IMG/VR virus record: IMGVR_UViG_2913167280_000009 | Span: 1 to 28,277 of that record | Source: a virus | Taxonomy: Duplodnaviria > Heunggongvirae > Uroviricota > Caudoviricetes | Strand: one strand, 5' to 3' | DNA length: 28,277 nucleotides | In this document: positions 1 through 28,277 of the stretch, piece by piece | Position numbering within the stretch: position 1 is the first letter of the stretch | How the letters are laid out: each line of letters begins with the position of its first letter | The notes under the pieces: model-generated | Databases searched by the model: none | What the model was told of the DNA's origin: nothing | Seen by the model: only the letters and a program-made list of their open reading frames with translations | Made by a program: the position numbers and the translations under genes

Positions 1-993
1 TTAACTCAATAACCAGACCAATATCACGATGATGGCGGTCAGCAATATCCACAGGCTGGGGCGCATGGCCATTTCTTGCATCGTGTTAATGAATGGCGTA
101 AAGGGATTGAGCAACGGTTGAATATCTCGCGGTTCAATCCCATTCACCCGCCGTTGATAAAGCTGGTTGAGGATATCCTCGGCCTGTGCGGAAGTCAGGG
201 CTGAATGCTGAGAAAGGCCATATTTTTTCTCAACATAGCTCGATAATACTGTCAACTCGCTGGCATCCAGTGGCTGTTTTAGCGCCATCTGAAGCGACTC
301 CAGTGTCGGTGTATTTTGCTGACTTAACACCTGGCGTGCCTGCAACCAGGTAACCAGGTGGGTAAACATTTTGGCCGGGATCAACTCTCCATTTTTTACC
401 CCAGAAAGTTCCAGCATAGATTGCCAAATCTGTTTGCTGGGTTCTCCTGTTGCCGCCGCGAGTTTAGTCACCAGTTGCTTAAGCGTATTGTGTTCTGCCG
501 GTAGCAAAGGGCGATCGGTCGCCTGGCGCTGTTGCGGCTGCGGAATAACCATCTTCCCTTCCTGTAACAGCGTCAGGACGGTTTTTAATTGCTCCGGTGA
601 GAGTTGATTCAGCGGCGTCTGACCAAAGTTATGACGAATGTAATCTGTGACCGCCTGACGATTATTCCCCAGTCGTAAGTACTCGCTCAATTGCGCCAAA
701 AGCTGGCGGACAGAATGGCTTTCTTGCGCGGCCAGTAAACGTTGTGCAAGGTTTTGTTCTGCGGCGGGGAAATTGCGTGAAAGTAACGGTGAATCGCCCG
801 GCAGACCGATGTCGTGCTTTATACCAGCCCACAATTCCGCGCTCTGCTGTTGCGTCAGCGAAGTCACTTTGGTTATCAAACTTTCCAGCACTGTACGTTG
901 CAAGCTGGATAAAGGCTGATTGCCTGCGCCAGACGACAGTTTATCCCCCTGACCCGGTGGTTGCCCAGGAGGGGCGGAAATTGGTTGTATCAT
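1..993 (-). CDS. flk: Flk-like C-terminally anchored membrane protein (probable flagellar biosynthesis regulator Flk); likely host flank
   Basis: 330-aa ORF, Gln/Leu-rich, single C-terminal hydrophobic anchor (SLWILLTAIIVILVWLLS); length and architecture fit enterobacterial Flk. Recognition is from memory and unverified. Confidence 0.5.
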   Translation of the reverse strand: MIQPISAPPGQPPGQGDKLSSGAGNQPLSSLQRTVLESLITKVTSLTQQQSAELWAGIKHDIGLPGDSPLLSRNFPAAEQNLAQRLLAAQESHSVRQLLAQLSEYLRLGNNRQAVTDYIRHNFGQTPLNQLSPEQLKTVLTLLQEGKMVIPQPQQRQATDRPLLPAEHNTLKQLVTKLAAATGEPSKQIWQSMLELSGVKNGELIPAKMFTHLVTWLQARQVLSQQNTPTLESLQMALKQPLDASELTVLSSYVEKKYGLSQHSALTSAQAEDILNQLYQRRVNGIEPRDIQPLLNPFTPFINTMQEMAMRPSLWILLTAIIVILVWLLS

Positions 994-1198
994 TACGTAT
1001 CCTTATACCTGAAATCATCGCAAGTATGCCTGGCCGCGAGATTATGGCACACTTGTCCGGTTAACTCTCGTTCTCATACAGGTACCACAAACGTGAAAAT
1101 CCTTGTTGATGAAAAAAATAATGATTTAATTTATTGATATAAAAGGATTTGTATCATCGCGTGTCCACGCAGTGACCACATTTTCGAGAGGTAGAGTA

Positions 1199-1225
1199 AG
1201 CCCGCAACATTGCGGGCTTTGTCTT
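1199..1225. terminator. GC-rich hairpin (AGCCCGC-N6-GCGGGCT) followed by a T-rich tract on the + strand, at the 3' end of the methyltransferase gene
   Basis: Inverted repeat read directly; T-rich tail only on + strand, so its role for the - strand MTase gene is uncertain. Confidence 0.35.
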
Positions 1226-2015
1226 ATGGTTCGATCGCCGTTTTGAGCCGTTGTGTTGCTACATCAAAATAATGATCACTGGTTTCTATACCAATAAATT
1301 TGCGTCCTGCTTTCAGTGCTGCAATACCCGTTGTTCCTGACCCCATAAAAGGATCAAGGACTGTTCCGCCACTATTCGCAGTCCTGACCAGTTCTGCCAT
1401 AAGTTCTTCTGGTTTTCCGGTCGGATGCAGTTTCTTTGACGGGGTAACCGGGAACGTCATGCAGCCGTCGAACGGTCCCGAAGGCGATTTACCTAAATGG
1501 CCTTTGCTACCCCAGACGATGTATTCGCACTGATGCCGGAAATACCCGGTATGGGGTGTTCGTGACCCCCTCCCTTTGTTCCACGCAACGATTCCACGCC
1601 ATGTAAAGCCGCTGGCCTGAAACGCATCGGTTAAAGCTGGCAGTTGCCGCCAGTCAGTAAACACCAGGGCATAACCGCCCGGCCTGACTGCGCGGTATGC
1701 CTGTGCCATCCATAATTGTGTCCAGTAAGCCCACGAACGGGCATCCATGTTTTCACCCGCAAATCCATCAAAGCGGTGAAGGTTCTTGTCGTTCAGATAT
1801 TTTGCATGGCTGCCCTGGTTGGTGCGTCCCGCCTTGTGTGTTGCCCCTGAACTGTAAGGCGGATCAGTGATTAAGGCATCAATGCTTTCTGGCTCAATCA
1901 GCGGCAATATTTCCAGTGCATTCCCACAGCAGAGCGTGGCATTGTCAGTCTGGTAAATCTTAGTGTATTCCGGGGTATGGGCTGTTTTGTGCTGGATTGC
2001 GATCCCCACGGTCAT
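1224..2015 (-). CDS. DNA amino-methyltransferase (N6-adenine or N4-cytosine), beta-class motif order
   Basis: 263 aa; DPPY catalytic motif near the N-terminus (ITDPPYSSG) and SAM-binding FxGxG motif near the C-terminus (LDPFMGSGTTGIAA). Confidence 0.85.
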   Translation of the reverse strand: MTVGIAIQHKTAHTPEYTKIYQTDNATLCCGNALEILPLIEPESIDALITDPPYSSGATHKAGRTNQGSHAKYLNDKNLHRFDGFAGENMDARSWAYWTQLWMAQAYRAVRPGGYALVFTDWRQLPALTDAFQASGFTWRGIVAWNKGRGSRTPHTGYFRHQCEYIVWGSKGHLGKSPSGPFDGCMTFPVTPSKKLHPTGKPEELMAELVRTANSGGTVLDPFMGSGTTGIAALKAGRKFIGIETSDHYFDVATQRLKTAIEP

Positions 2016-2166
2016 TGCTCCTCATGTGTGTGGGGTGCTCGATGGCTCTCGTTATCTGGTTAAGGGTTTTGCAACGCGGACATTTTATTTCAATGTGGTG
2101 AAATGAGGCGCGGGCAAGTAATTTATAGCAATTTTTGCATCGTATATTTTGCATCATCTGCGGCAC
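1960..2166 (-). CDS. com: Com-like zinc-finger protein (homologue of phage Mu translational activator Com); true start probably at 2154 (MQNIRCKNC)
   Basis: Translation IRCKNCYKLL...HIEIKCPRCK matches Mu Com (IRCKNCNKLL...HIEIRCPRCK); two CxxC pairs; 3' end overlaps the MTase start by 56 nt. Confidence 0.7.
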   Translation of the reverse strand: MPQMMQNIRCKNCYKLLARASFHHIEIKCPRCKTLNQITRAIEHPTHMRSNDRGDRNPAQNSPYPGIH

Positions 2167-2194
2167 CTCTTGTGTGGTTACTGCTGCCGATATG

Positions 2195-2214
2195 ATAACA
2201 AATTGATTTGTTAT
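2195..2214. promoter_or_regulatory. Near-perfect 20-bp palindrome ATAACAAAT-TG-ATTTGTTAT about 30-40 bp upstream of com; candidate operator
   Basis: Read directly; 9-bp perfect arms with a 2-bp asymmetric centre, placed where the com-MTase promoter must lie. Confidence 0.4.
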
Positions 2215-2231
2215 GCCTATTGCTTACGGGT

Positions 2232-2255
2232 GGTGCCCTCATTTGTGAGGGTGCC
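2232..2255. other. Stable stem-loop (GGTGCCCTCA / TGAGGGTGCC, two G-U wobbles, loop TTTG)
   Basis: Inverted repeat read directly; lies in the hok 3' region / com upstream region. Confidence 0.35.
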
Positions 2256-2263
2256 AAAAAGAA

Positions 2264-2289
2264 AACCCGCAGTATTTACGCTGCGGGTT
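2264..2289. terminator. Bidirectional rho-independent terminator (AACCCGCAG-loop-CTGCGGGTT) flanked by A-run and T-run; terminates the hok transcript on the - strand
   Basis: Perfect 9-bp stem, 8-nt loop, T-rich tracts on both strands. Confidence 0.6.
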
Positions 2290-2345
2290 TTCTTGTTTGT
2301 GTCCATGGGATAGGGTGCCACTTCGGCCAGCCTTAGCAACCGATT

Positions 2346-2367
2346 GACGGGGGATTGCTCCCCCGTC
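2346..2367. other. GC-rich hairpin (GACGGGGG-ATTGCT-CCCCCGTC) 10 nt downstream of the hok stop codon
   Basis: Perfect 8-bp stem read directly; no U-tract, so more likely an mRNA structural/stability element than a terminator. Confidence 0.4.
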
Positions 2368-2376
2368 GCGGTTTCC

Positions 2377-2517
2377 TTACTGCTTACACTGTAAGAACGC
2401 CGCAAACTCCGCTCCCCAGAAGCTCATCCGTATTTCACACAGCGAACCGTGCAGCATCCAGATGATAAGGGTTGCCGTCACGCAGAACGTGATGGCCATC
2501 AGCGATTTTTGCGACAT
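2377..2517 (-). CDS. Hok/Gef-family type I toxin (small membrane toxin); not in the supplied ORF track because it is under 60 aa
   Basis: Hand translation of the - strand gives MSQKSLMAITFCVTATLIIWMLHGSLCEIRMSFWGAEFAAFLQCKQ (46 aa): N-terminal TM helix, conserved SLCEIR and E-AAFL-CK motifs of the Hok family; RBS AGGAG 8 nt upstream of ATG. Confidence 0.7.
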   Translation of the reverse strand: MSQKSLMAITFCVTATLIIWMLHGSLCEIRMSFWGAEFAAFLQCKQ

Positions 2518-2709
2518 AGCACTTGCTCCTTTGTTGGAGAGGCGCTAACCTGTCACTTGCGAAGGTTATGTGGTTAGTGCCCCGAGTTGAACATAAAAGT
2601 TTAACCGGGGCCTTTCCACATCTGGCCTTCGGGTATTCCCTCCAGCCATCAGCCGAAAGGCACCCGCGCGTAATCTATCGCTTTTTTGTTACTCCGGCAA
2701 TTCAGCCTG

Positions 2710-2970
2710 TTAATTCTGAGGTAAGGGCAAACTCATCTGGTTGTTTCCCCTGTGTGAAGCTGGTAGCTCATTCCACGGGATGCCCTCTGAAGAGTGAACG
2801 CAGGGGGCGTGTTTCGATGTGAATTTATGGAAAGCCTCCAGTGTTGAGAAGCATACGCCGCATTCCAGGTTGTTACACTGGTAATATTTTTTCCGTACGG
2901 TATCTGAATCATTTTCCGAACGACTGGTGCGGATACGGGCAGATGCGCCACAAAGCGGACAACGGAACAT
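2710..2970 (-). CDS. ogr: Ogr/Delta-family zinc-finger late gene transcription activator
   Basis: N-terminus MFRCPLCGASARIRTSR...YYQCNNLECGVCF matches P2 Ogr (MFHCPLCQHAAHARTSR...YHQCQNVNCSATF), Cys4 finger; immediately downstream of D as in P2. Stop position (86 aa vs 72 in P2) less certain. Confidence 0.8.
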   Translation of the reverse strand: MFRCPLCGASARIRTSRSENDSDTVRKKYYQCNNLECGVCFSTLEAFHKFTSKHAPCVHSSEGIPWNELPASHRGNNQMSLPLPQN

Positions 2971-3012
2971 AGCGACCTCCCTTAACGTGGTGCTGCCGCT
3001 ATTCTAAGTTGC

Positions 3013-4113
3013 TCACTCTGTTTCTGCTATCCATTCCGGGATTTTTGCTTCAAGCTCAAGCTGAGTGGTAAAGCCGCTGTTGTCAATGGTGTGCTCGGCT
3101 TTTGCAATAATCCAGTCCTGATTATCAATCTCGCTTTTAAAGCCTGTTACCGTGCCATGCATTTCGGGATAGAGTTCTGCTCGTCCACGTGCCAGCGTGA
3201 TGGAAAATGATGCGGCTCCACGTTGTAGCTGCTGCCACTTTGCCGCCGCTGCGCGTCTTGCTGCCTGCTCGTTCTGATAAGTCTTGCGTAACACAAACAC
3301 GTTGCCTTCCGCGCCTTCCATATAGTCGCCTTCCCGGCTGCTGCTTTTCTCCTTTTTCGGTTTGCGGCGTTTCACGCTGACTTTTTTCTTTTTCCCGTAA
3401 TTAAGATCAAGCCAGTAGGCGCGTACACCCGTATACGCCTCGCGGTCAGCAATGCGAAACTGATGGCGATCGCCGCTGCTGCGTGTGATGGCAAACGATG
3501 GCAATGGTTTTCCCTGCGCGTTCACGCCACCACCTGGCATGATGAATAACAGATTACCGCTTTTTACCGTGGTGATTGCGCCCAGCATTTCCGCCATGCG
3601 TGTAAGGAAGGACATGTCGCTTTCTTCGGTCTGGTCTGCGTGGTCGATTTCGATATCCATCAGCATTTCGCTGATTTGCGGTTTCAGGCCGTATCGGTGA
3701 GCAATTGCAGACACCACGCGTTCAACGGTCACATCATGCCAGGATACTTCGCGCTTGACGTTAAATTCATCCCGAAAATCTGCGCTTCTGGCTGAAATGG
3801 TCAGTCTGTCTGGCGGTCCTTCATGAGCAATTTCATCAACAATGTAAGTGCCTTTTTCAGTCAGCGGTTCCCCTTTCCAGCCAATGAGAACCGTCAGGCG
3901 AGCGCCCCGTGGCGGCAACTGCAACTGACCATCAGCATCATCCAGCGTGATGGTGAGCTGGTCTGCCTCAAATCCCCGGTTGTCGGTCAGTGACAGGCTC
4001 ATCAGGCGTTCTGCCACACCGGACAGCGTTTTCCCCTCCGCGAGAATATCAAAATCAGGCATCTTCACGGGGTCAGTACTCTGGTTGAACAGTTGCATGG
4101 TGGTGTTAATCAT
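3013..4113 (-). CDS. D: Tail protein D (late control gene D family)
   Basis: About 366 aa from the Met at 4113, which has GGAGG 6 nt upstream; the ORF track extends to 4245. Family assignment is by recognition of gpD-like sequence and by the D-ogr adjacency, not by a search. Confidence 0.8.
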   Translation of the reverse strand: MINTTMQLFNQSTDPVKMPDFDILAEGKTLSGVAERLMSLSLTDNRGFEADQLTITLDDADGQLQLPPRGARLTVLIGWKGEPLTEKGTYIVDEIAHEGPPDRLTISARSADFRDEFNVKREVSWHDVTVERVVSAIAHRYGLKPQISEMLMDIEIDHADQTEESDMSFLTRMAEMLGAITTVKSGNLLFIMPGGGVNAQGKPLPSFAITRSSGDRHQFRIADREAYTGVRAYWLDLNYGKKKKVSVKRRKPKKEKSSSREGDYMEGAEGNVFVLRKTYQNEQAARRAAAAKWQQLQRGAASFSITLARGRAELYPEMHGTVTGFKSEIDNQDWIIAKAEHTIDNSGFTTQLELEAKIPEWIAETE

Positions 4114-4270
4114 CGGCTTCCTCCCTGTGCAGCATGGTCGCATGTGTGTGCGGGCGGGGTTACTGCTTTTTGTTGTCGCCGGGCGGCAAGAACGGCGCAG
4201 GGATGAGATTACGCGCGTGGTGGGTGATGATTGTTGCCGAATCATTTAACGGATACAAGGGGCTGGAACT

Positions 4271-5455
4271 ATGAGTGAAACTCGCTTTCATGGCGCCCGC
4301 GTTACGGAAAGTACCGACCTGGTAACAGCAATTAACGACGTTGATTCCAGCGTTATCGGTATCGTGGCAACGGCGGACGATGCGGACGCGAAGCTGTTCC
4401 CGCTGAACAAGCCCGCATTAGTGACCCGCGTCAATGACGTGCTGGGAAAATGCGGGACAACGGGGACGCTTTACCGTGCGCTAAAACCCATTGCAGACCA
4501 GGTGAGCACAAAAGTGATTGTGGTTCGCGTGGCTGAACACAAAGAAGAAGACGGAAAAACACAGGATCAACTGGTTATCGGTGGTTCTGAATCCGACGGC
4601 AGCTATACGGGGATGTATGCGCTGCTTGTTGCAGAGCAGGATGAAAGCATTGGGTACCGTCCGCGTATTCTGGCCGCGCCGGGCCTGGATACGGAGGCGG
4701 TGACCAAATCCCTGTGCGTGATTGCAGGTAAACTGCGCGCGTTTGTATATGCCTCATGTCACGGCTGCAACACGATGGCTGAAGCCATTGCGTACCGTGA
4801 AAAATTCAACGAACGCGAGCTGATGCTCCTGTGGCCGGACTTCATCGCTTACAACCCGAAAAGTGGCGAGAATGAGGTTTTCCCCGCGCCTGCCTACGCG
4901 TGCGGCCTTCGTGCGTACATTGACCATGAGCAGGGCTGGCACAAATCGCTGTCCAACGTTCCGGTCAAAAATGTGCTGGGGATGTCCAGGCATGTGTTCT
5001 GGTCGTTGCAGGCCGAAGACAGCGATGCCAACAGCCTCAACAACAAAGAAATCACAACCATCATTCGCCGCAACGGGTTCCGCTTCTGGGGTAACCGTAC
5101 GCCGGAAACGAACGCCTACATTTTTGAGGTGTATACCCGAACCGCACAGGTGCTGGCTGACACGGTTGCGGAAGCGCAGTTTGAAACCATCGACAGTCCA
5201 CTGACGCCTGCGAACGTGAAGGATGTTATCAGCGCTATGAGGGCAAAACTTGATTCGCTGGTTACTGCCGGGAAACTGATTGGCGCATCGTGCTGGTATG
5301 ACATCGTGGATAACAGCACCACAGAATTGCGACAGGGGCGCGTGCGTATTCGCTATAAATATACGCCCGTTCCTCCGCTGGAAGATATGGAGCTTTACCA
5401 GGCGTTCACTGATGAGTTCTTTGGTCCTGCATTTGCAGTGCTTGGAGGTGCTTAA
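4271..5455 (+). CDS. FI: Contractile tail sheath protein FI
   Basis: 394 aa; long colinear matches to P2 FI (FPLNKP, RPRILAAPGLDT, KLRAF, RELM..WPDF, EQGWHKSLSNV, RRNGFRFWGNRT, YTRTAQV, YTPVPPLE). Confidence 0.95.
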   Translation: MSETRFHGARVTESTDLVTAINDVDSSVIGIVATADDADAKLFPLNKPALVTRVNDVLGKCGTTGTLYRALKPIADQVSTKVIVVRVAEHKEEDGKTQDQLVIGGSESDGSYTGMYALLVAEQDESIGYRPRILAAPGLDTEAVTKSLCVIAGKLRAFVYASCHGCNTMAEAIAYREKFNERELMLLWPDFIAYNPKSGENEVFPAPAYACGLRAYIDHEQGWHKSLSNVPVKNVLGMSRHVFWSLQAEDSDANSLNNKEITTIIRRNGFRFWGNRTPETNAYIFEVYTRTAQVLADTVAEAQFETIDSPLTPANVKDVISAMRAKLDSLVTAGKLIGASCWYDIVDNSTTELRQGRVRIRYKYTPVPPLEDMELYQAFTDEFFGPAFAVLGGA

Positions 5456-5967
5456 TGGCCGTACCAAAACATCTTCGTTTTTTTACGCTGTTTGTGGATG
5501 GTGAAAATGAAGTGGGTAAGGTGACGTCTGTCACCCCGCCTAAACTGACGCGTAAAACCGACAGCTATCGTGGTGGTGGCATGATGGGGGCGGTGAGTAT
5601 CGACCTCGGTCTGGACGATTCCGCGCTTGATGCGAGTTTTGTCATGGGTGGCGCCGTTCGTGCGCTGTTCCTTAAATATGGCGGAACAATGGACGGCACG
5701 CTGCTGCGTTTTGCGGGTGAATACTACACCGATGCAGAAAGCGACCTGTATGAAATCGAGATGCGCGGGCGTGTGACGGAAATTGATATGGGGGAGGCCA
5801 AACAGGGCGAAGCCACGTCACACACTTACGCTGTCAAAAACACCTACTACAAGCTGAGTATTAACGATCGTCCGGTGTGGGAAATTGACCTGGTGAACCA
5901 CATCTACCGGAAGGATGGCAAGGACATTGTACCCGACCGCATCCGCTCCGCGCTCGGGCTCGGCTGA
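5455..5967 (+). CDS. FII: Tail tube protein FII
   Basis: 170 aa, start overlaps FI stop (TAATG); size and position as P2 FII. Confidence 0.9.
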   Translation: MAVPKHLRFFTLFVDGENEVGKVTSVTPPKLTRKTDSYRGGGMMGAVSIDLGLDDSALDASFVMGGAVRALFLKYGGTMDGTLLRFAGEYYTDAESDLYEIEMRGRVTEIDMGEAKQGEATSHTYAVKNTYYKLSINDRPVWEIDLVNHIYRKDGKDIVPDRIRSALGLG

Positions 5968-6021
5968 TAAGTAATATGCAGGCGGCGCAGTGCGTCGCCT
6001 CTGACTGAAAGGAGTTTTCTG

Positions 6022-6390
6022 ATGAAAGAGACGAAAAATACCAATACTGAAAACGCTGTGGTGGTTGCTGATACTGCGAAAGAAACCAGCGAGCGCGGCG
6101 TAAAACTTACCCAGCCAATTGAGCGAGGCGACGAAAAAATCACGTATGTGGAGATCACCGGGGCTATTGAGCAGGCTGGATCCCTGCGTGGTCTGTCGCT
6201 GTCTGATGTGCTGAATCTGAAAGCGGAATCCATGTTTACGCTGTTGTCACGCGTGACATCACCGCGACTGGATGAAGTGACGATCAAAAAAATGGCATCC
6301 TGTGACTTTATTCAGTTATGTGTGGTTGCCGTAAATTTTTTGAGCGGTGCGGACTCTGGCGGGAAGAACGAACAGGCGACGGAAGCCTGA
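6022..6390 (+). CDS. E: Tail assembly chaperone E (zero-frame product)
   Basis: 122 aa acidic protein between tube and tape measure genes; strong RBS AAGGAG. Confidence 0.85.
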   Translation: MKETKNTNTENAVVVADTAKETSERGVKLTQPIERGDEKITYVEITGAIEQAGSLRGLSLSDVLNLKAESMFTLLSRVTSPRLDEVTIKKMASCDFIQLCVVAVNFLSGADSGGKNEQATEA

Positions 6391-6554
6391 TCACGGTTGT
6401 GTGCTTTGAGCACATAGAAGACTTTGTGGCAGATATTGCCGTTATTTTTAACTGGTCGCCCGCCGAAATCTTCATGATGACGCCCGGCGAAGTGGTTAGC
6501 TGGCGTGAGCGGGCGGCACTTCGCAGTGGGAATGCAGACGATGAAGACTCTTGA
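6022..6554 (+). CDS. Tail assembly chaperone E+E' (frameshift fusion product)
   Basis: E frame to the slippery site at 6336-6342, then -1 frame (ORF 6318..6554) to stop at 6554; equivalent to P2 E/E' and lambda G/GT. Confidence 0.7.
6336..6342 (+). other. Programmed -1 ribosomal frameshift slippery heptamer T TTT TTG
   Basis: In the E frame the codons are AAT TTT TTG (N-F-L); the -1 frame continues open to 6554 and reads SPAEIFMMTPGEVVSWRERAALRSG, the conserved E' extension. Confidence 0.75.
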
Positions 6555-9342
6555 CATTCGGGTCGCCTTCAGTGCTGTTGACAGGCTGACCCGGCCAGCC
6601 GAAAACGCCCGCCGCCTGATGGGACAGTTTGGTGACTCCATCCAGCGAACGCAGGGGGCGATCAAAAATCTCGAGCGTCAGGCGCGTTCATTTGAGCGCG
6701 CCCGCGATGCTGTCAGTAAAGCGGATGCTGGCATCGTGAAAGCACGACGCCAGCTTAACGCCCTTCATCAGTTACAACGCACGGGTACTGTGCTCAGCGA
6801 AAAACAACAAAGGCTGATGCAGCAGTTAAGCACCCGGCTTGAACGCCTGAATGAATCGCGCACGCGGGAAATTCAGAAAATGCGGGAGCTTGGCGGAGAG
6901 CTTAAACGCCACGGTATTTCCCTGACAGGCAGCGATAACACCATCCAGCAGGCCATCAGACGCACCGAACAGTACAACAACCAGCTTGAACGCGAACGAC
7001 AGGCGCTTGCGCGTGTAACGCGGGCGCGTGAGCGGTATTCACGCGCGCAGGAAACTGCGGGAAAACTGAAAACAGGTGGTGCGCTGGCAACTGGTGCGGC
7101 AGCGGCTGGCGGCTATGCTGCCGGGCGTTTTTTGCAGCCCGCTATCGGATTCGGGAAAGAGATGTCCCGTGTGCAGGCGCTGACGCGAATTGACCAGAAC
7201 AGCCCGCAGTTTAAGGCGCTGCGTGAGCAGGCGCTAAAGCTCGGCTCTGAAACGCAGTTTACTGCGAGTGATGCCGCCAGTGGGCAGGCATTTCTTGCTA
7301 TGGCTGGCTTCACACCAGAAGCCATTCAGGCTGCGCTTCCCGGCGTGCTGAGCATGGCAACGGCTGGCGGTATGGACCTTGGCGAGACGGCGGATATTGG
7401 CTCAAATATCCTGACGCAGTTCGGCCTCTCTGCTGACCAGATGGACCGGGTCGGCGACACACTTACTGCGGCGTTTACCCGTACTAACACCGACCTTCGC
7501 GCGCTGGGCGAAACCATGAAATATGCAGGTCCGGTGGCGGGTAAGCTGGGAATATCGCTGGAGCAGGCCGCAGCGATGGCGGGCGTGCTGGCGAATATGG
7601 GTATCAGAGGGAGTGATGCCGGGACGGCAATGCGTGCCAGCCTTGCTCGTCTGGCATCACCGCCAAAGGCGGCAGCAGAGGCGCTGAAAGAGCTTGGTGT
7701 GGCTGTCTCTGATGCGAACGGCAAAATGCGCCCGATGGAGGATGTGCTGGCCGACCTTTATAAAGCCACCCGCAAATACGGGGAAGTTGACCGGGTATCG
7801 TTCTTTAAGGACATAGCCGGAGAAGAGGCCTTCACGTCATTTATGGCCCTCGTTGATGCGGCAGGTGACGGTTCTCTGCCCAAACTGAGAAAAGAACTTG
7901 AAGGCGCACGCGGTGAGGCTGAACGCACGGCAAAGGTTATGGCCAATAACCTTGATGGCGACCTGAAATCACTCGGCAGTGCATGGGAGGGGCTGCGTAT
8001 CCGCATTGCGGATCTGATTGACGGTCCGCTGCGCTCTGTCACGCAGTGGCTCACTCGGGTGGTCTCAAAGGTGACGGAGCTGGCGCAGGCCCATCCGGCA
8101 CTGACGCGCCAGCTACTGATTGCAGGCGGTGCGCTGCTGGCAATGACTGCAACGGTTGGCTCGTTGTCACTGGCTCTTGGGGTGCTTGCTGGCCCGCTGG
8201 CAAAACTGCGTCTTGGTTTTTCCCTCCTGACCGGATCAATGAATGCTGTCAGGGTCCTGCCAGCGCTGTGGGGAATGGTGGCGGGTTCCGTCTCTTTACT
8301 GGGAGGCGCTATCGGGGCGTTGTTCAGCCCGGTCGGTCTTATCGTAGCTGCGCTTGCCGGAGCTGCCGTTCTCATCTGGAAATACTGGGACCCAATCAGG
8401 GCATTTTTTGCCGGGGTGTTCAGCGGGATTATGGAGCGGCTGGCCCCGTTACGCGAAACCTTTGAACGGTTTGGCCCTGTTTTCGAACTGGTTCGTGATG
8501 GCGTGATTCAGGTCTTTAACTGGTTTACATCGCTGCTGTCACCGATGGAATCCAGCAAGGAAACGCTGGATAAATGCACCAGTGCTGGCGAGGTGTTCGG
8601 CAACGTTCTTGGCGGTGCGTTACAGCTTGTCCTGACGCCTGCAAAAATGCTGCTGGATACGCTGGCATGGATACTGGAAAAACTTGGCGTCCTTCCAGAT
8701 GAAGCGGAAAGGGCGAGAAAGAAAATCGAAGACGCGCAGCGTGCGGCCATTCTTCAGGACAAGGTTGCTTTGCTTCAGGGGGACCTGGCAAAAATCAATC
8801 CACCGAAGTCTGCGGAAACAGGGACCGGAGGCGATAAGCCTAAAGACAACAAGCCGCTCACGGACAACAACACTGGCACGCTGCGCAGGCTCAGCAAAAT
8901 TGCAGATAACACAGGCAGGCTGGTTGATGAGACGAAAAAGCGTATCGGCCCCGGTGATATTGTCTTTAAGAACCTGCCCCGTGCGCTTGCTGTTCGTGGG
9001 GAGTGGCAGGAGCGGAAGATTGCGCAGGTCAGTAGGCCTGCTTCCGCAATCAACATCACACCCGTGGTCCCGGCTCCGTTATCTCCGGTGTTGCCCCCTG
9101 TTGTTGCAGCAAGCTCCCGTCCGGTCGTGGAGGCCGCACGTGCGCCAGTTGCGCCCGTTTCCGCATCTTCCCGCAGCCGGGAGGCTGCGACCCCCGGATT
9201 TGGTGGTGAAATTCATGTCCATCTGCATAACGTTGTTACGCAGAATCCCCGCGAACTGGCGAAACTGGTCGGCGAAATGGTCAGGGCAGAACTGGAGCGG
9301 CGTACCCGTGCCGGGCGTGGCAGCTTTTATGATAAAGAGTAA
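6532..9342 (+). CDS. T: Tail tape measure protein T
   Basis: About 936 aa, helical N-terminal half, Gly/Ala-rich hydrophobic central segments, directly after E/E' and before U. Start ambiguous (GTG 6505, ATG 6532 or ATG 6541). Confidence 0.9.
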   Translation: MQTMKTLDIRVAFSAVDRLTRPAENARRLMGQFGDSIQRTQGAIKNLERQARSFERARDAVSKADAGIVKARRQLNALHQLQRTGTVLSEKQQRLMQQLSTRLERLNESRTREIQKMRELGGELKRHGISLTGSDNTIQQAIRRTEQYNNQLERERQALARVTRARERYSRAQETAGKLKTGGALATGAAAAGGYAAGRFLQPAIGFGKEMSRVQALTRIDQNSPQFKALREQALKLGSETQFTASDAASGQAFLAMAGFTPEAIQAALPGVLSMATAGGMDLGETADIGSNILTQFGLSADQMDRVGDTLTAAFTRTNTDLRALGETMKYAGPVAGKLGISLEQAAAMAGVLANMGIRGSDAGTAMRASLARLASPPKAAAEALKELGVAVSDANGKMRPMEDVLADLYKATRKYGEVDRVSFFKDIAGEEAFTSFMALVDAAGDGSLPKLRKELEGARGEAERTAKVMANNLDGDLKSLGSAWEGLRIRIADLIDGPLRSVTQWLTRVVSKVTELAQAHPALTRQLLIAGGALLAMTATVGSLSLALGVLAGPLAKLRLGFSLLTGSMNAVRVLPALWGMVAGSVSLLGGAIGALFSPVGLIVAALAGAAVLIWKYWDPIRAFFAGVFSGIMERLAPLRETFERFGPVFELVRDGVIQVFNWFTSLLSPMESSKETLDKCTSAGEVFGNVLGGALQLVLTPAKMLLDTLAWILEKLGVLPDEAERARKKIEDAQRAAILQDKVALLQGDLAKINPPKSAETGTGGDKPKDNKPLTDNNTGTLRRLSKIADNTGRLVDETKKRIGPGDIVFKNLPRALAVRGEWQERKIAQVSRPASAINITPVVPAPLSPVLPPVVAASSRPVVEAARAPVAPVSASSRSREAATPGFGGEIHVHLHNVVTQNPRELAKLVGEMVRAELERRTRAGRGSFYDKE

Positions 9343-9353
9343 GGAGTCGTGCC

Positions 9354-9842
9354 ATGATGATGATCTACGGCATGTTTGTTTTTGAATTGCGCACATTGCC
9401 GCATCAGCAGTTACAGCAAAACAAAAGCTGGCGACATGTGAAAAACGAGCGCGTTAACCGTTCAGCAAGCTGGCAGTATATCGGTGCAGGTGATGATCGC
9501 ATCGTTCTTTCTGGCGTGCTTTATCCTGAGATTACAGGCGGCGAAGTGTCGCTGTCGCTGCTGACCACGCAGGCGTATGCGGGACGCCCGTGGCCTCTGA
9601 TTGATGGCGTCGGGCAGATTTACGGCATGTATGTTCTGACCGAAACGAGCACGACCCGCTCTGAACTGGATCGCTACGGGAAAGCGAAAAAGATAGAGTT
9701 TTCCCTGACCCTTGAACGCTGTGATGAGGATTTGCGGGAACGCCTGCAATCCTCATCGTTCAGCGATATGCTGTCAGGCTTCAAAGATAAGGTGACATCA
9801 TCCCTTAACAGCGCGACCAGTTCGATTAAAGGGCTGTTCTGA
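9354..9842 (+). CDS. U: Tail protein U
   Basis: 162 aa starting MMMIYGMFVFELRTLPHQQLQ, typical gpU N-terminus; immediately after T. Confidence 0.85.
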   Translation: MMMIYGMFVFELRTLPHQQLQQNKSWRHVKNERVNRSASWQYIGAGDDRIVLSGVLYPEITGGEVSLSLLTTQAYAGRPWPLIDGVGQIYGMYVLTETSTTRSELDRYGKAKKIEFSLTLERCDEDLRERLQSSSFSDMLSGFKDKVTSSLNSATSSIKGLF

Positions 9843-9864
9843 GCTGCTCTGATTTAACGAAAAA

Positions 9865-9888
9865 ACCGCTAATAAATATATTGGCGGT
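9865..9888. terminator. Bidirectional rho-independent terminator between convergent U (+) and G/Tfa (-)
   Basis: ACCGCTAATA-AATA-TATTGGCGGT hairpin flanked by AAAAA upstream and TTTT downstream. Confidence 0.6.
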
Positions 9889-9912
9889 TTTGCTCCTTAA
9901 ATCACCTTACTT

Positions 9913-10488
9913 TTACACTAATTCTGGCCACTCTATATCAGGGGCATTTTCTGGCTGAACGCGGTTAAGTAATACCCGATATTTTTTCCATTTTGTCAGA
10001 CTTAATTTCTCTTCTTCTGTAGCCATATCCAAATCGACAGCATCCTGCAGAGTGGCAATAATTTCACCTGCATATGCAATCTGCTCTTTCTTCCGGGACT
10101 CTGCTGCCCTGACAAGCGCATCACGTTCTGCGCTCTCATCGTCCACCCACGCATTCCCGTTCCATTTCTGATAGTTGCCGGTCGGGGAAATTGTTGTTAC
10201 ATCAGATGGTAATGCGCCAAGTTCAGAAATATAAATGGCTGCTCCTGTTTTTGTTTCATAGACAGTCTTTCCGCGATGGTCTTCCATCAGTTCCCATTTC
10301 ATTTCATCTGCATTGAAAACGGCGGCAAAACCCGCTGGAATATCAGGAGGCGCAATATCTGTGCTGTTTGCAGGCAGACCTGTATGCGGTGGAATATATG
10401 CGTCACCTTCTCCAATAAATTCATTTGTACCATCGAGATAATTAAATACGCGAATGGTTTGTGCTTCAGCACTCATTCTGAAAGTCAT
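9913..10488 (-). CDS. Tail fibre assembly protein (Tfa; P2 gpG / lambda Tfa family)
   Basis: [34 protein letters not shown] is nearly identical to lambda Tfa; C-terminal [19 protein letters not shown] motif; ATG at 10488 with GAGG RBS (track start 10494 is an upstream GTG). Confidence 0.9.
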
Positions 10489-10512
10489 TTTCACCTCTAA
10501 TCAGAGAAAGAA

Positions 10513-11382
10513 TTATTGTTTATGTGGGGTATGGGAATGAGCACCAATGGTGATATTCCTTCCGTGGCTGTGTGCGCCAATGGCAATATTACCTACGGAT
10601 TTTACCGGATTAATCTGATGCATATGTGCCCCCGGGCGAGAACGATTATTAGTCAGCACGTCATCAACCTGATGTTCAGGATTAATGCATACCTGCCCTG
10701 ACCGTAAGCAATACGTCCGATAATCTCCGAGTCCAATATATTTAATATCCGCATAACGACAGGCAGGAGTACCCGGGCAGTATGCGCATGTATTAAATAC
10801 TTCTAACTGGCGGGAGTGTGCGTATTCCCAGTTAATTGCTTCTGTTTTTTTACTAAAGTTATCCCATGCCTGCTTCATCTGCCGGGCAACACTTTCAAAC
10901 GGCACCTGACCACATCCGGCCCCCATTGCAGGGAATACCACCGTCTTTATTTTCCTGTCTGTCGTTGCATTTTTATTGTGCTGAAAGATGGCAAGTAAAG
11001 CAGCCCACGTGGCGTTATATACAGCGTCTGTTCCGTCAATGGTCAGCGGAACGCGCATTGTTGGCGCATGTACCAGCCAGGGATGGTTGTTATCCCCCGT
11101 TTCAATAACAAATGCAGTGCCTACAGGCTGCTCACCAAGATATTCACGAAGAATATGATTCTGAACACGTGTCTGTAACTGAGTACCAAAGAATGCAGTA
11201 ATGGCAGCGTCAACGCCGCCATCCATTAGCCCGAAACTGTTTGCCGCACTGACCATGCAGTCAAATTCCGGGATTGCTTCAAATGGTTTTTCTACAACAT
11301 CCACATTATCTGCATTTGCGAATACCCGCTTAAATGCTTCAGCCATTTCAGGTACTGGTGCTGAAAGAATTAAATTAATCAT
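10513..11382 (-). CDS. Macrodomain (ADP-ribose binding/processing fold) protein with Cys-rich linker and His-rich fibre-tip-like C-terminus; function unknown
   Basis: 289 aa. N-terminal ~180 aa carry macrodomain signatures: [21 protein letters not shown] (compare VNAAN..GGGVDGAI), [14 protein letters not shown] (compare FPAISTGVYG). C-terminus has GAHxH repeats. Start ATG overlaps the H stop (ATGA). Confidence 0.7.
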
Positions 11383-22086: not shown

Positions 22087-22240
22087 AGTTTTTGCCCCTC
22101 TGACTGGTCCTTCAGTCATGATGGCAAAGCGTAACAGGCTGATACAAAGGGCTTTTGTTGTAAGAAAACAGTCAGAACAGGGGGTTAAGGAGAACGGTTT
22201 CGCGCGCGGGTAATCTTCCTGTAATTACTCAGGGGGAGCA

Positions 22241-23992
22241 ATGATTCAGGACGCTTTTGTGCGCCAGCGTGCGCGACAACTTTACTGGCAGGGTTATCCG
22301 CCCGCAGAAATATCACGTCTGATGGGAATAAACCCGAACACGATTTATGCGTGGAAAAAACGCGACCAGTGGGATGAAACGCCACCCGTGCAGCGTGTCA
22401 CGCAGTCCATCGATGCGCGCCTCATCCAGCTCACTGAAAAACAGAATAAAACAGGTGGTGACTTCAAGGAAATAGACCTGCTGACCCGGCAGCTTAAAAA
22501 ACTGCATGATGGCCAGCCGGATGCGACGGCCACAGGAAAGAAAGGCCGGGCGAAAAAACTCAAAAATCATTTCACGCCGGAACAGATTGCCGCACTGCGG
22601 GAAAAAATCATCAGCAGGCTGGAGTGGCATCAGCGGGGCTGGTTTGACTCCCTGACCCTTTGCAGGGAAGCCGGGATACGTAACAGGATGATCCTGAAAT
22701 CCCGACAGATTGGGGCGACCTGGTATTTTGCACAGGAAGCTCTGCTGATGGCGCTGCGTGACGATGTGGCGCAACCTTACCAGCGTAACCAGATTTTTTT
22801 GTCTGCGTCGCGTCGTCAGGCGTTCCAGTTTAAAAGCATTATTCAGAAGGCCGCGGCTGAAGTTGATGTGGAGCTGAAAGGGGGCGATAAAATCATCCTC
22901 TCCAACGGCGCAGAGCTGCATTTTCTCGGCACTTCTGCTGCGTCGGCACAGTCCTATACGGGCAATTTTTATTTTGATGAATTTTTCTGGGTCAGTCGCT
23001 TTGCTGAACTGCGCAAGGTAGCTGGCGCTATGGCAACCCTCAGCGGACTGCGGCGCACCTACTTCTCCACGCCATCCACCGAAACGCACGAGGCATACGC
23101 CTACTGGAACGGCGACCGCTGGAACGAGAAAAAGGCCTCGCATAAACGCCAGCGTTTTTCTGTGGACTGGAAAACGCTGCATAACGGGCTTATCTGCCCT
23201 GACCGGACGTGGCGGCAAATTGTCACGCTGGAAGATGTGGTTAATCACGGCTGGAAACACACCGATATTGACGAAATCCGTGATGAAAACACCGAAGACG
23301 AGTTCCTCAATCTCTATATGTGTGAGTTTGTTCGCGAAGGGGAATCGGCATTTAACCTGAATATCCTGATTGGCTGCGGTGTTGACGGATACGACGACTG
23401 GAAAGACTGGAAACCTTTTGCTCCCCGCCCGATGGGGAATCGTCCGGTATGGATTGGGTATGACGCAAACGGCAGCAGTGGCAACGGCGACAGCGGCGCT
23501 GTGTCCGTGGTGGTTCCTCCGGCTGTTCCTGGTGGCCGTTTTCGAACGGTGGAGACGCGACGCGTTCAGGGGCTGGAGTTTGAAGAACAGGCCAGAGTCA
23601 TTGAAGAGTTCACGTGTCGCTACAACGTGGAACACATCGGCATTGATGTGACGGGCGGGAACGGGGAGGCTGTTTATCAGATAGTGAAGCGGTTTTTCCC
23701 TGCTGCTATTCCGTACACCTTCACGCTGTCATCCAAACGGTCGCTGGTACTGAAAATGCTGCAAATAATGCGTGCCGGACGGTGGGAATATGATCGTGCC
23801 GAACGCGAGCTGGTCGCGGCCTTTAACGCCGTGCGTAAGGTGAAAACACCGGGCGGCTTTATCACTTACGAAACGGACCGCGCGAGGGGGATCAGCCACG
23901 GCGACCTTGCGTGGGCAACCATGCTTGCTGTCATTAACGAACCGATTGGCGGCGAAGGAGAAAACGAGCGTTTCACGGTTATGGAGTTCTGA
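22241..23992 (+). CDS. P: Terminase large (ATPase) subunit P
   Basis: 583 aa; size, divergent position from O and adjacency to portal as P2 gpP. Confidence 0.95.
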   Translation: MIQDAFVRQRARQLYWQGYPPAEISRLMGINPNTIYAWKKRDQWDETPPVQRVTQSIDARLIQLTEKQNKTGGDFKEIDLLTRQLKKLHDGQPDATATGKKGRAKKLKNHFTPEQIAALREKIISRLEWHQRGWFDSLTLCREAGIRNRMILKSRQIGATWYFAQEALLMALRDDVAQPYQRNQIFLSASRRQAFQFKSIIQKAAAEVDVELKGGDKIILSNGAELHFLGTSAASAQSYTGNFYFDEFFWVSRFAELRKVAGAMATLSGLRRTYFSTPSTETHEAYAYWNGDRWNEKKASHKRQRFSVDWKTLHNGLICPDRTWRQIVTLEDVVNHGWKHTDIDEIRDENTEDEFLNLYMCEFVREGESAFNLNILIGCGVDGYDDWKDWKPFAPRPMGNRPVWIGYDANGSSGNGDSGAVSVVVPPAVPGGRFRTVETRRVQGLEFEEQARVIEEFTCRYNVEHIGIDVTGGNGEAVYQIVKRFFPAAIPYTFTLSSKRSLVLKMLQIMRAGRWEYDRAERELVAAFNAVRKVKTPGGFITYETDRARGISHGDLAWATMLAVINEPIGGEGENERFTVMEF

Positions 23993-25038
23993 TGAGCAGA
24001 AAAAATAAAAAAGTGCGCATGAGTTCACGCATTGATCTCTCTGATGCGCTCAGGAAAGAATCGTCGCTCAGCGCGTTCACATTTGACGGCCCTTACCGCC
24101 TGACCGGGCATGACCTGCTGGATAATATGTACTGTGCTGATAACGGGCGGTGGTATGAAACCCCGGTGGACTGGTACGGTCTGGCAAGAGCTGCCCGGCA
24201 AACGTCCTGGCATCAGTCTGCGCTTTACTTTAAGCGCAATGTATTGCTCGGTTGCTATATTCCGCACCCGCTGCTTTCCCGGCAGGATTTCTCGGCGCTG
24301 GCGCTGGACTGGTTTGTGTTCGGTAACGCATTCCTTGAGCTTCGAAGCAATATGCTCGGCGAACCGCTTAAATTACGGCACGCCCTGGCGAAATACATGC
24401 GACGCGGAAGCGATCTTGAATCATGGTGGTATGTGCAGGATGGTAAGGACGCGTTTCAGTTTCGCCCTGGCAAAGTGTGCCACCTGATGAATCCTGACAT
24501 TAACCAGGAAATCTACGGCATGCCGGAATATCTCGGCGCATTACTCTCGGCCAGCCTGTCTCATTCGGCGGACATGTTCAGAAAACTGTATTACGACAAC
24601 GGATCCCACGCCGGGTGCATCATCTACATCGGTGCAGCGCAGGTAAACCGCGAAAGCATGGACTCCCTGAAAGAAACGCTACAGGGTGCACGTGGTGGTG
24701 GTGCGTTTAAAAACGTGCTCATTCATGCGCCCAACGGGGGCAAAGAGGGGGTGCAAATTTTGCCGTTCCAGCAGATCACCGCAAAGGATGAGTTCATGAA
24801 TGTTAAGGCGGCATCCCGTGATGATGTGCTGGCTGCGCACCGCGTTCCGCCGCAATTGATGGGGGCGATGCCGGGTGAAAAAAGTGCGTTTGGTGATGTG
24901 GAGAAGGCCGCGCGGGTTTACGCAATTAACGAGCTGATGCCTGTCATGGAGGCCATGAAGCACATCAATGACTGGCTTGGCGAAGAGGTGATCCGCTTTA
25001 ATCCTTACGCACTGCTGGACACCCAGCCCACATCCTGA
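23992..25038 (+). CDS. Q: Portal (capsid vertex) protein Q
   Basis: 348 aa; size and position immediately after P as P2 gpQ. Confidence 0.95.
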   Translation: MSRKNKKVRMSSRIDLSDALRKESSLSAFTFDGPYRLTGHDLLDNMYCADNGRWYETPVDWYGLARAARQTSWHQSALYFKRNVLLGCYIPHPLLSRQDFSALALDWFVFGNAFLELRSNMLGEPLKLRHALAKYMRRGSDLESWWYVQDGKDAFQFRPGKVCHLMNPDINQEIYGMPEYLGALLSASLSHSADMFRKLYYDNGSHAGCIIYIGAAQVNRESMDSLKETLQGARGGGAFKNVLIHAPNGGKEGVQILPFQQITAKDEFMNVKAASRDDVLAAHRVPPQLMGAMPGEKSAFGDVEKAARVYAINELMPVMEAMKHINDWLGEEVIRFNPYALLDTQPTS

Positions 25039-27224: not shown

Positions 27225-27536
27225 TCATTCAGGAAATAATGCCCGGATATTCCCTGCTATCTGACTGGTTATCTGTGCGGTTGATACTGGCTGTGACGCG
27301 GGGGATTCTGTCCTGGTTTGTGTCACTGATAACGCTTCATCATCAGCCCATGCAGCCAGTCGGTAAGCCTCTGCCGGATTCATCTTCAGAAGTGCCAGCC
27401 CGGCCAGAAAAGCCACGCGCTGGCCGCTTTTGCGGGCTTCTGGTGTAAGGCTGTCCAGCCAGGCGCATGCTTCGCCTTCGTTCTTGACGGCGGCTGGCTT
27501 CAGATAGAAACTTATTCTTCTGGTTAATGTCGCCAT
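27225..27536 (-). CDS. parR: ParR/StbB-like partition adaptor (centromere-binding)
   Basis: 103 aa; RISFYLKPAAV...AWLDSLTPEARKSGQRVAFLAGLAL aligns with R1 ParR (TIAFKLNPDVN...DTLDSIPQGERSRLNRAALTAGLAL); directly downstream of the parM homologue. Confidence 0.75.
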   Translation of the reverse strand: MATLTRRISFYLKPAAVKNEGEACAWLDSLTPEARKSGQRVAFLAGLALLKMNPAEAYRLAAWADDEALSVTQTRTESPASQPVSTAQITSQIAGNIRALFPE

Positions 27537-27542
27537 GGAGGG

Positions 27543-28277
27543 TTACTCCTTATCCATAGCGTACAGACCGTTAACCAGAGCAAACTGTGGCACCCCGTCT
27601 GTGATGAAATTCGCATTGACTCCATAGACTTCACGGACTGCGGGTGCCACAATCTCCGCTCCTCCACCGACAACCAGCACCCGCCCGTAACCCGAAAAGC
27701 CCGCGAGTGCGCGGATCACGCGTTGTTTCAGTGTCTCCTCCTTTTCACGAATAACCGCCATCAGGCTGTTGTAATGCGCGTCATTGTGAATGTGCTGGCG
27801 TAGCCAGGCTTCATCGTGACGGTGCTCAATAATGGTATTGGCGATGTGGTGACTGGTACGCATACCGTTAGTGGCCATCACCGACAGCACGGCATCAGCC
27901 ATCAGGGAAACGCCTACGTGTGGATCGCAAAACACCTGGCTGATGCCTGCCAGTTGCCCCTGAACCTTTGCCACATCCAGCGTGGTTCCGCCCAAATCCA
28001 CAATCAGCAGGGATTCAAACGGACTCATGTCAGCCAGTGCCTTAAAGCCAGCCGGAATGGATTCAGGCATAACCCGCACGTTACGGATAGTGAATGCCTC
28101 ACCGTTCTGGCACTCCACCGGGCGCATGACGTTCGCTTTTTTGCGGTTGATGTTGGCCATGTCCGGCTGTGCGTTTGTGTCGAAATATTCGCTCAGTGGC
28201 AGGGTGACAACCACATCCACTTCCTGTGGTGTGATGCCTGATTTGACCAGTGCGTGGTGAATGGCAATGACATTCAC
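27543..28277 (-). CDS. parM: ParM/StbA actin-like partition ATPase, N-terminally truncated by the window edge
   Basis: Colinear matches to R1 ParM: IAIHHAL, ITPQEVD, RKKAN, VMPESIPAGF, SLLIVDLGGTTLDVA, GVSL, FSGYGRVLVVGGGAE, LVNGLY. Confidence 0.85.
   Translation of the reverse strand: MNVIAIHHALVKSGITPQEVDVVVTLPLSEYFDTNAQPDMANINRKKANVMRPVECQNGEAFTIRNVRVMPESIPAGFKALADMSPFESLLIVDLGGTTLDVAKVQGQLAGISQVFCDPHVGVSLMADAVLSVMATNGMRTSHHIANTIIEHRHDEAWLRQHIHNDAHYNSLMAVIREKEETLKQRVIRALAGFSGYGRVLVVGGGAEIVAPAVREVYGVNANFITDGVPQFALVNGLYAMDKE

Follow-up and report, generated by a model that had tools for sequence, protein, structure and literature searches.

The inverted sheath-to-U tail block of a P88-like prophage is an inherited gene order of P2-like phages, probably with one activator dyad between two divergent promoters

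The stretch of DNA analysed here (28,277 nucleotides, hereafter the window) most probably belongs to a P88-like prophage (Xuanwuvirus-type, Peduoviridae) residing beside the host gene flk, and the opposite orientation of its tail genes FI–U is the normal gene order, inherited within a large clade of Enterobacterales P2-like phages from one old inversion and served by an activator dyad shared between divergent promoters. We assign to this reading as a whole a probability of approximately 0.8. The flip of FI–U as such is an old trait, common to a large group of known and viable P2-like phages, P88 and SEN4 among them, and ordinary for the lineage. Phages arranged in this way do function: P88 can be induced and is lytic, and PhiSM shows spontaneous activity (PMC5285337; PMC6456863).

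All homologues of a P2-type contractile tail module (FI, FII, the E/E′ chaperones, T, U and D) are present in the window, as registered by Pfam, PHROG and tblastn with P2 proteins (33–51% identity). The plus strand carries the tail sheath gene FI (4271–5455; Pfam sheath domains, 45% identity to P2 FI), the tail tube gene FII (5455–5967; Pfam Phage_tube, E = 1.8e-45), E (6022–6390; PHROG tail protein, 33% identity to P2 E), the tape measure gene T (~6505–9342; Pfam PhageMin_Tail), which probably starts at ATG 6541, and the tail protein gene U (9354–9842; Pfam Phage_P2_GpU, E = 5.7e-39). Within E there is a slippery heptamer of P2 type, T_TTT_TTG (6337–6343), and the overlapping −1 frame is open to 6554, which points to a programmed −1 frameshift giving E together with its predicted extension E′ (plus strand, to ~6554; ORF 6318–6554). 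On the minus strand D (3013–4113; Pfam Phage_GPD) codes for a baseplate hub/spike-complex protein of 366 aa, 51% identical to D of P2 and 98% to that of P88; its start at 4113 is preceded by GGAGG. D is followed on its own strand by an ogr-like late activator gene (2710–2970, 86 aa, 42% identity to P2 Ogr) with a zinc finger CX2C-X24-CX4C (Pfam Ogr_Delta, E = 2.3e-14), i.e. the phage-encoded activator expected of an Ogr/Delta-dependent late promoter system. Another frame considered for ogr, 2733–2951, gave no Pfam match.

According to the P2 annotation, G, FI, FII, E, T, U, D and ogr of this phage are all located on one strand. The window departs from the canonical succession G-FI-FII-E-T-U-D-ogr, since its FI–U are opposite to both G and D. 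Gene identities and strands thus bear out the first-pass annotation, which had placed FI-FII-E/E′-T-U on the plus strand (4271–9842), inverted relative to P2, with D and ogr on the minus strand and divergent from FI across a gap of 157 bp (4114–4270). Its suggestion that D is uncoupled from the F operon also holds, D being separated from FI–U by orientation. At the opposite end of the block U converges with a G-like tail-fibre assembly gene (9913–10494, minus strand; Pfam Caudo_TAP), the last one in the long leftward late operon. A bidirectional terminator had been proposed between them at 9865–9888, and folding confirmed an intrinsic hairpin at 9862–9891, bordered at one end by a run of A and at the opposite end by a run of U (−16.5 kcal/mol for the plus and −22.9 kcal/mol for the minus strand; z = −4.6 and −6.5 versus shuffles). 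A simple terminator scan missed it because of the long loop, and folding was used instead. Transcription of FI–U would end at this hairpin, and the long O…G operon would end there from the other side. Homology to relatives stops just past it, and what lies beyond the U terminator is a cargo site prone to swaps.

The same gene order was found in P88, Citrobacter phage Shae_phiSM (PhiSM), Salmonella phage SEN4 and prophages of complete E. coli chromosomes, as well as in 80 of 80 IMG/VR loci. All genome loci whose D reaches 60% identity to that of the window were inverted and came from ~20 genera of Enterobacterales. Among the fetched loci 133 were inverted and 24 canonical; inversion was registered in every locus above the 60% level (133/133), while all loci with a P2-type D (~50% identity to the window D) were canonical, as were the outgroups Ralstonia RSA1 and Mannheimia 587AP1. 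The first-pass annotation implied that the arrangement was noteworthy for this genome, and conceded that a lineage-wide order in relatives would speak against that; such an order was looked for and found, so that this claim has to be abandoned. The one-strand order describes P2 and Peduovirus, not all Peduoviridae. A keyword check of the P88, PhiSM, SEN4/5 and Serratia PP4 papers revealed no mention of the inversion.

The gap between D and FI, with ends set by start-codon and SD calling, is conserved in size within the clade (mostly 145–164 bp). In the window it contains a predicted Ogr-type activator dyad, TGTCGCCGGGCGGCAAGA (4173–4190, centre 4181/4182), with one mismatch to TGT-N12-ACA: its right half-site is AGA instead of ACA, the same as in P88, and it lies where it should with respect to FI and to the −10-like hexamers that flank it. 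The consensus of P2 late promoters and their dependence on Ogr are described in PMC3931495. Exact TGT-N12-ACA occurs in the window four times versus 6.7 expected, and none of these matches is at a late promoter. The extended motif TTGTTGT-N13-GAAC surrounding the dyad (4170–4193) has only one other copy in the window, in the divergent O/P gap (22155–22178), which is the counterpart of the shared PP/PO activator site of P2; 0.02 occurrences are expected, for a pattern derived post hoc from these two sites. Exact TGT-N12-ACA was detected in 49 of 123 unique D–FI gaps as compared to 2.7% of shuffles, and with at most one mismatch at the homologous position in 110 of 116, though the gap sequences are related and part of this conservation reflects ancestry. 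The centre of such dyads lies 80–88 nt from the FI ATG (83 nt for P2 PF), a tightness partly built in by picking dyads within 68–95 nt of FI, and mostly 68–69 nt from the D ATG.

Candidate −10 elements are located 44–49 nt from the dyad centre on either side: GATGAT (4226–4231, plus strand) for a PF-like promoter with a predicted start at ~4238 and GACCAT (4134–4139, minus strand) for the putative D promoter with a predicted start at ~4126, which would leave D a leader of ~13 nt, SD included. In 33 dereplicated sequences the hexamer xAxxAT is seen at this distance on both sides, with A45, A48 and T49 present in 31, 32 and 31 of them on the FI side and in 30, 23 and 24 on the D side, where the whole half is in register with the dyad (ACAAC, a G+C-rich tract and then xAxxAT). 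Mapped promoters in the P2 annotation have matching spacing (−10 at 44–50, starts at +55 to +58). One can assume that an Ogr-type site is a dyad able to act from about −55 either way, like that of the P2 PP/PO pair, and that the single central site 4173–4190 drives the FI–U operon rightward from ~4238 and the D–ogr transcript leftward from ~4126. The promoter on the FI side resembles the original PF, its activator site keeping nearly the P2 distance to FI, and with PF carried along with the block only the promoter of D needs to be new. The “new divergent promoter pair” postulated earlier therefore survives by half: two divergent late promoters are predicted, but novelty is required from one of them. 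Judging from these motifs, PF probably travelled with the block, and D acquired a promoter served by the same activator site. It is somewhat better than an even bet that the inversion succeeded just because the PF site is a two-way dyad, so that the flip of PF together with FI–U brought D near that Ogr site and at once gave rise to a fifth late promoter (PD) in the manner of PP/PO.

An unlikely but still serious alternative accepts the lineage-wide order and supposes that the promoter of D is unrelated to the shared dyad, being for instance a constitutive sigma-70 one, or that the dyad serves FI only. The D-side −10 of the window (GACCAT) is indeed weak, the leader implied by the shared dyad would be very short, and in a few loci only 47–55 nt separate the dyad from the D start as called, too little for a site acting from −55 and a misfit to the shared-dyad model unless the start calls are wrong. 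A simple sigma-70 scan of the D–FI gap found no promoter either, but P2 late promoters likewise score poorly as sigma-70 sites, and PV of P2 starts at the V start codon. The constrained length of the gap and the D-side xAxxAT, which appears at 44–49 nt in 24–30 of the 33 dereplicated sequences in register with the dyad, argue for the shared activator site.

As for the origin of the shared order, the most economical history would be one old inversion of a segment comprising the PF promoter and FI…U in an ancestor with P2 order. The succession would then read H-G in the late direction, U-T-E′/E-FII-FI against it and D-ogr again along it, while the PF activator site, having moved with the inverted block, would now face D. 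A single old event fits the clean separation of inverted from canonical loci, which in distance clustering and nearest-neighbour tests group apart for D, FI and U alike with no nearest-neighbour exceptions. Inverted repeats were searched for at the two block junctions and none were found; no trace of the recombination event is left there. The same data bear on modular replacement, by which a tail module already divergent in its layout would have been acquired from another lineage with no in-place inversion. Modules do reassort, as exemplified by J of two inverted loci (L129 and L130), which is closest to J of canonical ones; the site past the U terminator is prone to swaps, and tail-gene rearrangements occur in other P2-like phages (the T gene of Mannheimia; Smp131). 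However, head, baseplate, FI–U and D have all diverged from P2 to an even degree (33–62% aa identity), FI–U and D no more than head and baseplate genes, and for this reason the idea that the FI–U block is a foreign module was rejected. Moreover, D, lying outside of the block, and FI and U, lying inside, give the same clean split, and the PF site keeps P2 spacing. Replacement is therefore improbable, and the old in-place inversion is preferred.

Other explanations fare much worse. Misassembly had been admitted earlier as possible, with a mis-join at 4114–4270 and/or 9843–9912, and it is true that the exact joint of this U terminator with this G allele is absent from the fetched loci; but the relatives keep U and its terminator to ~9891, followed by a variable fibre region and G on the opposite strand, one-piece alignments pass through the D–FI junction in complete phage genomes and run as flk-D-gap-FI-U in complete E. 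coli chromosomes, and 29 independent loci matching 4000–4400 near full length (89–99% identity) span the junction, which refutes an artefact at 4114–4270 and leaves this explanation with a negligible chance overall. A programmed reversible segment of Gin/Hin/Cin type, switching the orientation of tail genes, is brought to mind by the DNA invertase that adjoins U in P88 and Shae_phiSM beside their invertible tail-fibre cassette, but is hardly credible: the window lacks an invertase gene in the stretch from U to G, the block is not flanked by inverted repeats, a single orientation is observed among 133 loci, and flipping back would put the D start by the 3′ end of U and strip D of its predicted promoter. 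A recent inversion limited to this strain or prophage, to which the difference from P2 might point, is refuted by the survey (133 loci with D identity down to 60%, many genera and at least two ICTV genera) and can be practically dismissed.

If the proposed history is true, the layout would define a clade that makes up a large part of Peduoviridae and would be a clean natural case of a promoter captured through inversion, with D–ogr turned into a separate, self-reinforcing late transcript. The geometry of the D–FI gap yields a specific prediction on late control: one Ogr site, two promoters. For annotators the consequence is that this order should be flagged neither as rearranged nor as misassembled, there being nothing unusual in this genome. 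Orientation of FI–U relative to D may serve as a simple marker, which in the surveyed loci splits the large P88/SEN4-type clade from P2/186-type phages.

Among known phages the window is closest to P88 and Shae_phiSM (Xuanwuvirus), to which it is 90–94% identical at the nucleotide level and collinear over 2605–9842. P88 aligns with its tail region in one piece over 7.2 kb (92% identity), and P88 proteins match its head, baseplate and par genes at 91–99%; this identity and collinearity, along with the inverted FI–U and divergent D, mark the window as P88-like by sequence. The order ogr-D/FI-FII-E-E′-T-U, the gap of 157 bp and the dyad motif are common to all three. Between U and G, however, P88 and Shae_phiSM carry the DNA invertase and an alternative fibre cassette, whereas the window has only a 70-bp terminator spacer; it also has a different fibre tip, a macro-domain gene and another G allele. 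SEN4/SEN5 (Senquatrovirus) share with it the inverted layout and the H-macro-G tail-fibre end, and have exact TGT-N12-ACA in the D–FI gap, 81 nt from FI, though their D is just 63% identical to the window D and they belong to a different genus. The F operon of P2 (FI FII E E′ T U D, transcribed from PF) is homologous in all seven genes (33–51% aa identity) and has in common with the window the frameshift site, the activator-to-FI distance and ogr after D; but in P2 every gene runs in the direction of G, the start of D overlapping the stop of U, whereas here FI–U are reversed and D is set apart together with ogr. Finally, the D/FI gap resembles PP/PO of P2 in having one central dyad ~56 nt from each predicted start and −10-like hexamers 44–49 nt out, and the O/P gap of the window bears the same motif as its D/FI gap; the PP/PO sites of P2 were mapped experimentally, while those between D and FI are predicted from sequence only.

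The prophage is P2-like and adjoins the host gene flk (1–993, − strand), and each of its virion, tail and ogr-like genes listed here has a homologue in P2 with amino-acid identity of 33–62%. Virion genes Q and P occupy positions 22241–25038 of the + strand, the series O N M L X ... R S V W J I H, a macro-domain gene and G runs along the − strand from 22119 down to 9913, FI, FII, E/E', T and U are on the + strand (4271–9842), and D (3013–4113) together with the ogr-like gene, located 42 bp downstream of D, is again on the − strand. The annotation of P2 puts all of V W J I H G, FI FII E E' T U D and ogr on a single strand, and the start of D overlaps the stop of U. In the window FI–U is on one strand and G and D are both on the other, an inversion of the block by comparison with P2, as the first-pass annotation had proposed. 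Its divergence of D from FI across an intergenic region of 157 bp was reproduced by measurement, and D and ogr are indeed on the − strand, although the frame of ogr had to be corrected to 2710–2970. E contains a P2-type slippery T_TTT_TTG (6337–6343), and the −1 reading frame stays open up to 6554.

The 70-bp spacer separating U from G contains a hairpin (9862–9891) bordered by runs of A and U. Its folding is far more stable than that of shuffled controls, with z = −4.6 and −6.5 for the two strands, and it looks like a two-way intrinsic terminator. The bidirectional terminator assumed earlier is therefore retained, with limits a few bases wider. Homology to relatives ends directly past the hairpin (~9891), and the U terminator–G spacer (9843–9912; equivalent in compared loci L001, L002 and L004) is a hot spot for cargo: a DNA invertase with an alternative fibre cassette in P88 and Shae_phiSM, a transferase gene in E. 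coli Z1323HEC0067 and no cargo in the window.

The inverted order is not peculiar to this genome, being found by whole-locus comparison in P88, Shae_phiSM, SEN4 and E. coli chromosomes. Positions 2605–9842 align in a single piece, with 90–94% identity, to Escherichia phages Chuche, P88, PhiR44_2 and 520873, Xuanwuvirus P884B11 and Citrobacter phage Shae_phiSM (PhiSM). According to its RefSeq annotation, P88 has H, G, the invertible fibre cassette and the invertase, after which the series from U, T, E' and E to FII and FI is on the opposite strand and D back on the first; Shae_phiSM repeats this order. Salmonella phage SEN4 belongs to a different genus (Senquatrovirus) and its D is only 63% identical to that of the window, but it also has H, macro, G, reversed U-T-E'-E-FII-FI and D. 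The macro-domain protein gene (10513–11382, − strand; Pfam Macro, PHROG 2613), which separates tail fibre gene H from assembly gene G, has the same position in SEN4/SEN5 and a similar one in Gifsy-1.

In complete E. coli chromosomes the same prophage, with the same gene order, sits at the same site beside flk. The window flk is only ~80–83% identical to that of E. coli, so that the host is probably another enterobacterial species. At the flk-adjacent prophage end (1224–2166), a Com-like zinc-ribbon ORF (1960–2166, −) overlaps the start of an N6/N4 DNA methyltransferase gene (1224–2015, −) in a layout resembling Mu com/mom; the pair is also present in E. coli relatives, where a Hok/Gef gene separates it from ogr. 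In the early region, ParM-like and Plasmid_stab_B (ParR-like) partition genes (27225–28277, −), likewise present in P88 and PhiSM, hint at an option of plasmid-like maintenance.

Spread of the inversion was estimated using D as an anchor for 80 loci from IMG/VR and 80 from one-genome-per-species bacterial contigs, on which FI, FII, T, U, D, ogr, I, J, V and N were placed by tblastn. All loci with D at least 60% identical to that of the window had U−, T−, FII− and FI− upstream of D+ and ogr+; their hosts were Salmonella, Citrobacter, Enterobacter, Klebsiella, Kosakonia, Trabulsiella, Serratia, Edwardsiella, Pantoea, Erwinia, Pectobacterium, Brenneria, Symbiopectobacterium, Izhakiella, Hafnia, Rouxiella, Dryocola, Yersinia, Providencia, Morganella, Xenorhabdus and Photorhabdus. 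All loci with P2-type D (~48–54% identical) were canonical, giving 133 inverted versus 24 canonical loci. When D, FI and U were clustered by distance, all inverted loci fell into one cluster and all canonical ones elsewhere, with no nearest-neighbour exceptions. For J, which is outside the block, there were two: loci L129 and L130 (Pectobacterium, Yersinia) combine the inverted tail module with J nearest to that of canonical loci (23–30% distance), which indicates recombination between baseplate and tail modules, ordinary mosaicism at this joint. Locus L085 (NZ_JBQPOM010000071.1), labelled as Gram-positive Vagococcus sp. WN89Y, carries this enterobacterial prophage with D 98% identical and is probably contamination or a mislabelled assembly. 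Distant Peduoviridae, Ralstonia phage RSA1 and Mannheimia phage 587AP1, are canonical for FI-FII-E-U-D, so canonical order is likely ancestral. In 587AP1 (737–3649) T stands upstream of V, apart from FI-FII-E-U-D, which is a further tail-gene rearrangement within the family. These results are most simply explained by a single old inversion that a large clade of phages of Enterobacterales has inherited.

For an event so old, reinsertion of the block is indistinguishable from inversion in place. It is unlikely that a foreign tail module was acquired, since the modules have diverged evenly from P2: identity is 33–46% for FI–U, 51% for D, 35–47% for head and 44–62% for baseplate genes, so that FI–U and D are no more diverged than the others. 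A programmed invertible segment is excluded, as a search for inverted repeats flanking FI–U found none, there is no invertase here and 133 loci show one orientation. The survey excludes both misassembly and a recent inversion specific to the strain; some complete E. coli chromosomes align with the window without a break from flk to the end of U, so that misassembly at the D–FI junction is ruled out. The inversion is real and correctly described, yet it is lineage-wide, the condition that the first-pass annotation had itself set for refutation, and represents the usual architecture of an already known phage group. Keyword search within papers on P88 (PMC5285337), PhiSM (PMC6456863), SEN4/5 (PMC5261728) and a related Serratia prophage PP4 (PMC9826266) gave no mention of it. 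Two of these papers show it to be functional, P88 being inducible and lytic (PMC5285337) and PhiSM spontaneously active (PMC6456863).

The late promoters of P2, four in number, depend on Ogr and have the dyad TGT-N12-ACA near −55; divergent PP and PO use one common site (P2 annotation; PMC3931495). TTGTTGT-N13-GAAC occurs twice in the window, in the D/FI (4170–4193) and O/P (22155–22178) gaps, against 0.02 expected, which is only suggestive because the pattern was derived from these two sites. Comparison of gaps across the clade is independent of them. Exact TGT-N12-ACA was present in 49 of 123 unique D–FI gaps versus 2.7% of shuffles. With start-codon calling, gaps were mostly 145–164 bp and 110/116 unique ones had the dyad with at most one mismatch, for which the calculated chance rate within the same 28-nt range (68–95 nt from FI) is ~13% of gaps. 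The dyad centre is 80–88 nt from the FI ATG (83 nt for P2 PF) and most often 68–69 nt from the D ATG; in a few loci it is too near the called D start for the promoter model. The right half-site of the window dyad (4173–4190) is AGA, which also counts against the model.

When 33 dereplicated gaps were anchored on the dyad centre, a −10-like hexamer xAxxAT appeared at positions 44–49 on both sides (A45, A48 and T49 in 31, 32 and 31 gaps towards FI; 30, 23 and 24 towards D). Candidates in the window are GATGAT (4226–4231) towards FI and GACCAT (4139–4134), a poor −10, towards D. An alternating G/C tract CGCGCGCG, 31–39 nt from the dyad centre and immediately upstream of the hexamer, is conserved in the D-directed half of many loci and degraded to GCACACAC in the window (~4140–4160); similar GCGCGCG is found on the FI side (4210–4216) and the P side of the O/P gap (22200–22209). 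The longest-ORF start of O (ATG, 22119) falls within the predicted −10 (CATCAT, 22123–22118) of the O-directed late promoter, and the true start is probably 22086, in agreement with the shorter P88 annotation.

Based on this layout we infer that the divergent promoter pair at 4114–4270, initially considered new, would consist of PF, which travelled with the FI–U block, and a promoter of D, which faces the back of PF and may use the same dyad, like PP and PO of P2. A single Ogr-type dyad serving two divergent late promoters is one useful, testable prediction. Mapped P2 promoters have the same layout as the clade gaps: GAAACT (PO) and TAGCCT (PP) at 44–49 with start +56, and GAAAAT (PF) at 45–50 with starts +57 to +59. 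The predicted D leader of only ~13 nt is a further weakness of the model, though for PV of P2 the start coincides with the V start codon. ogr would be co-transcribed with D here, as happens in P2 by read-through from PF. For another P2-like phage, Smp131, rearrangement of tail operons with re-assignment of late promoters has been described.
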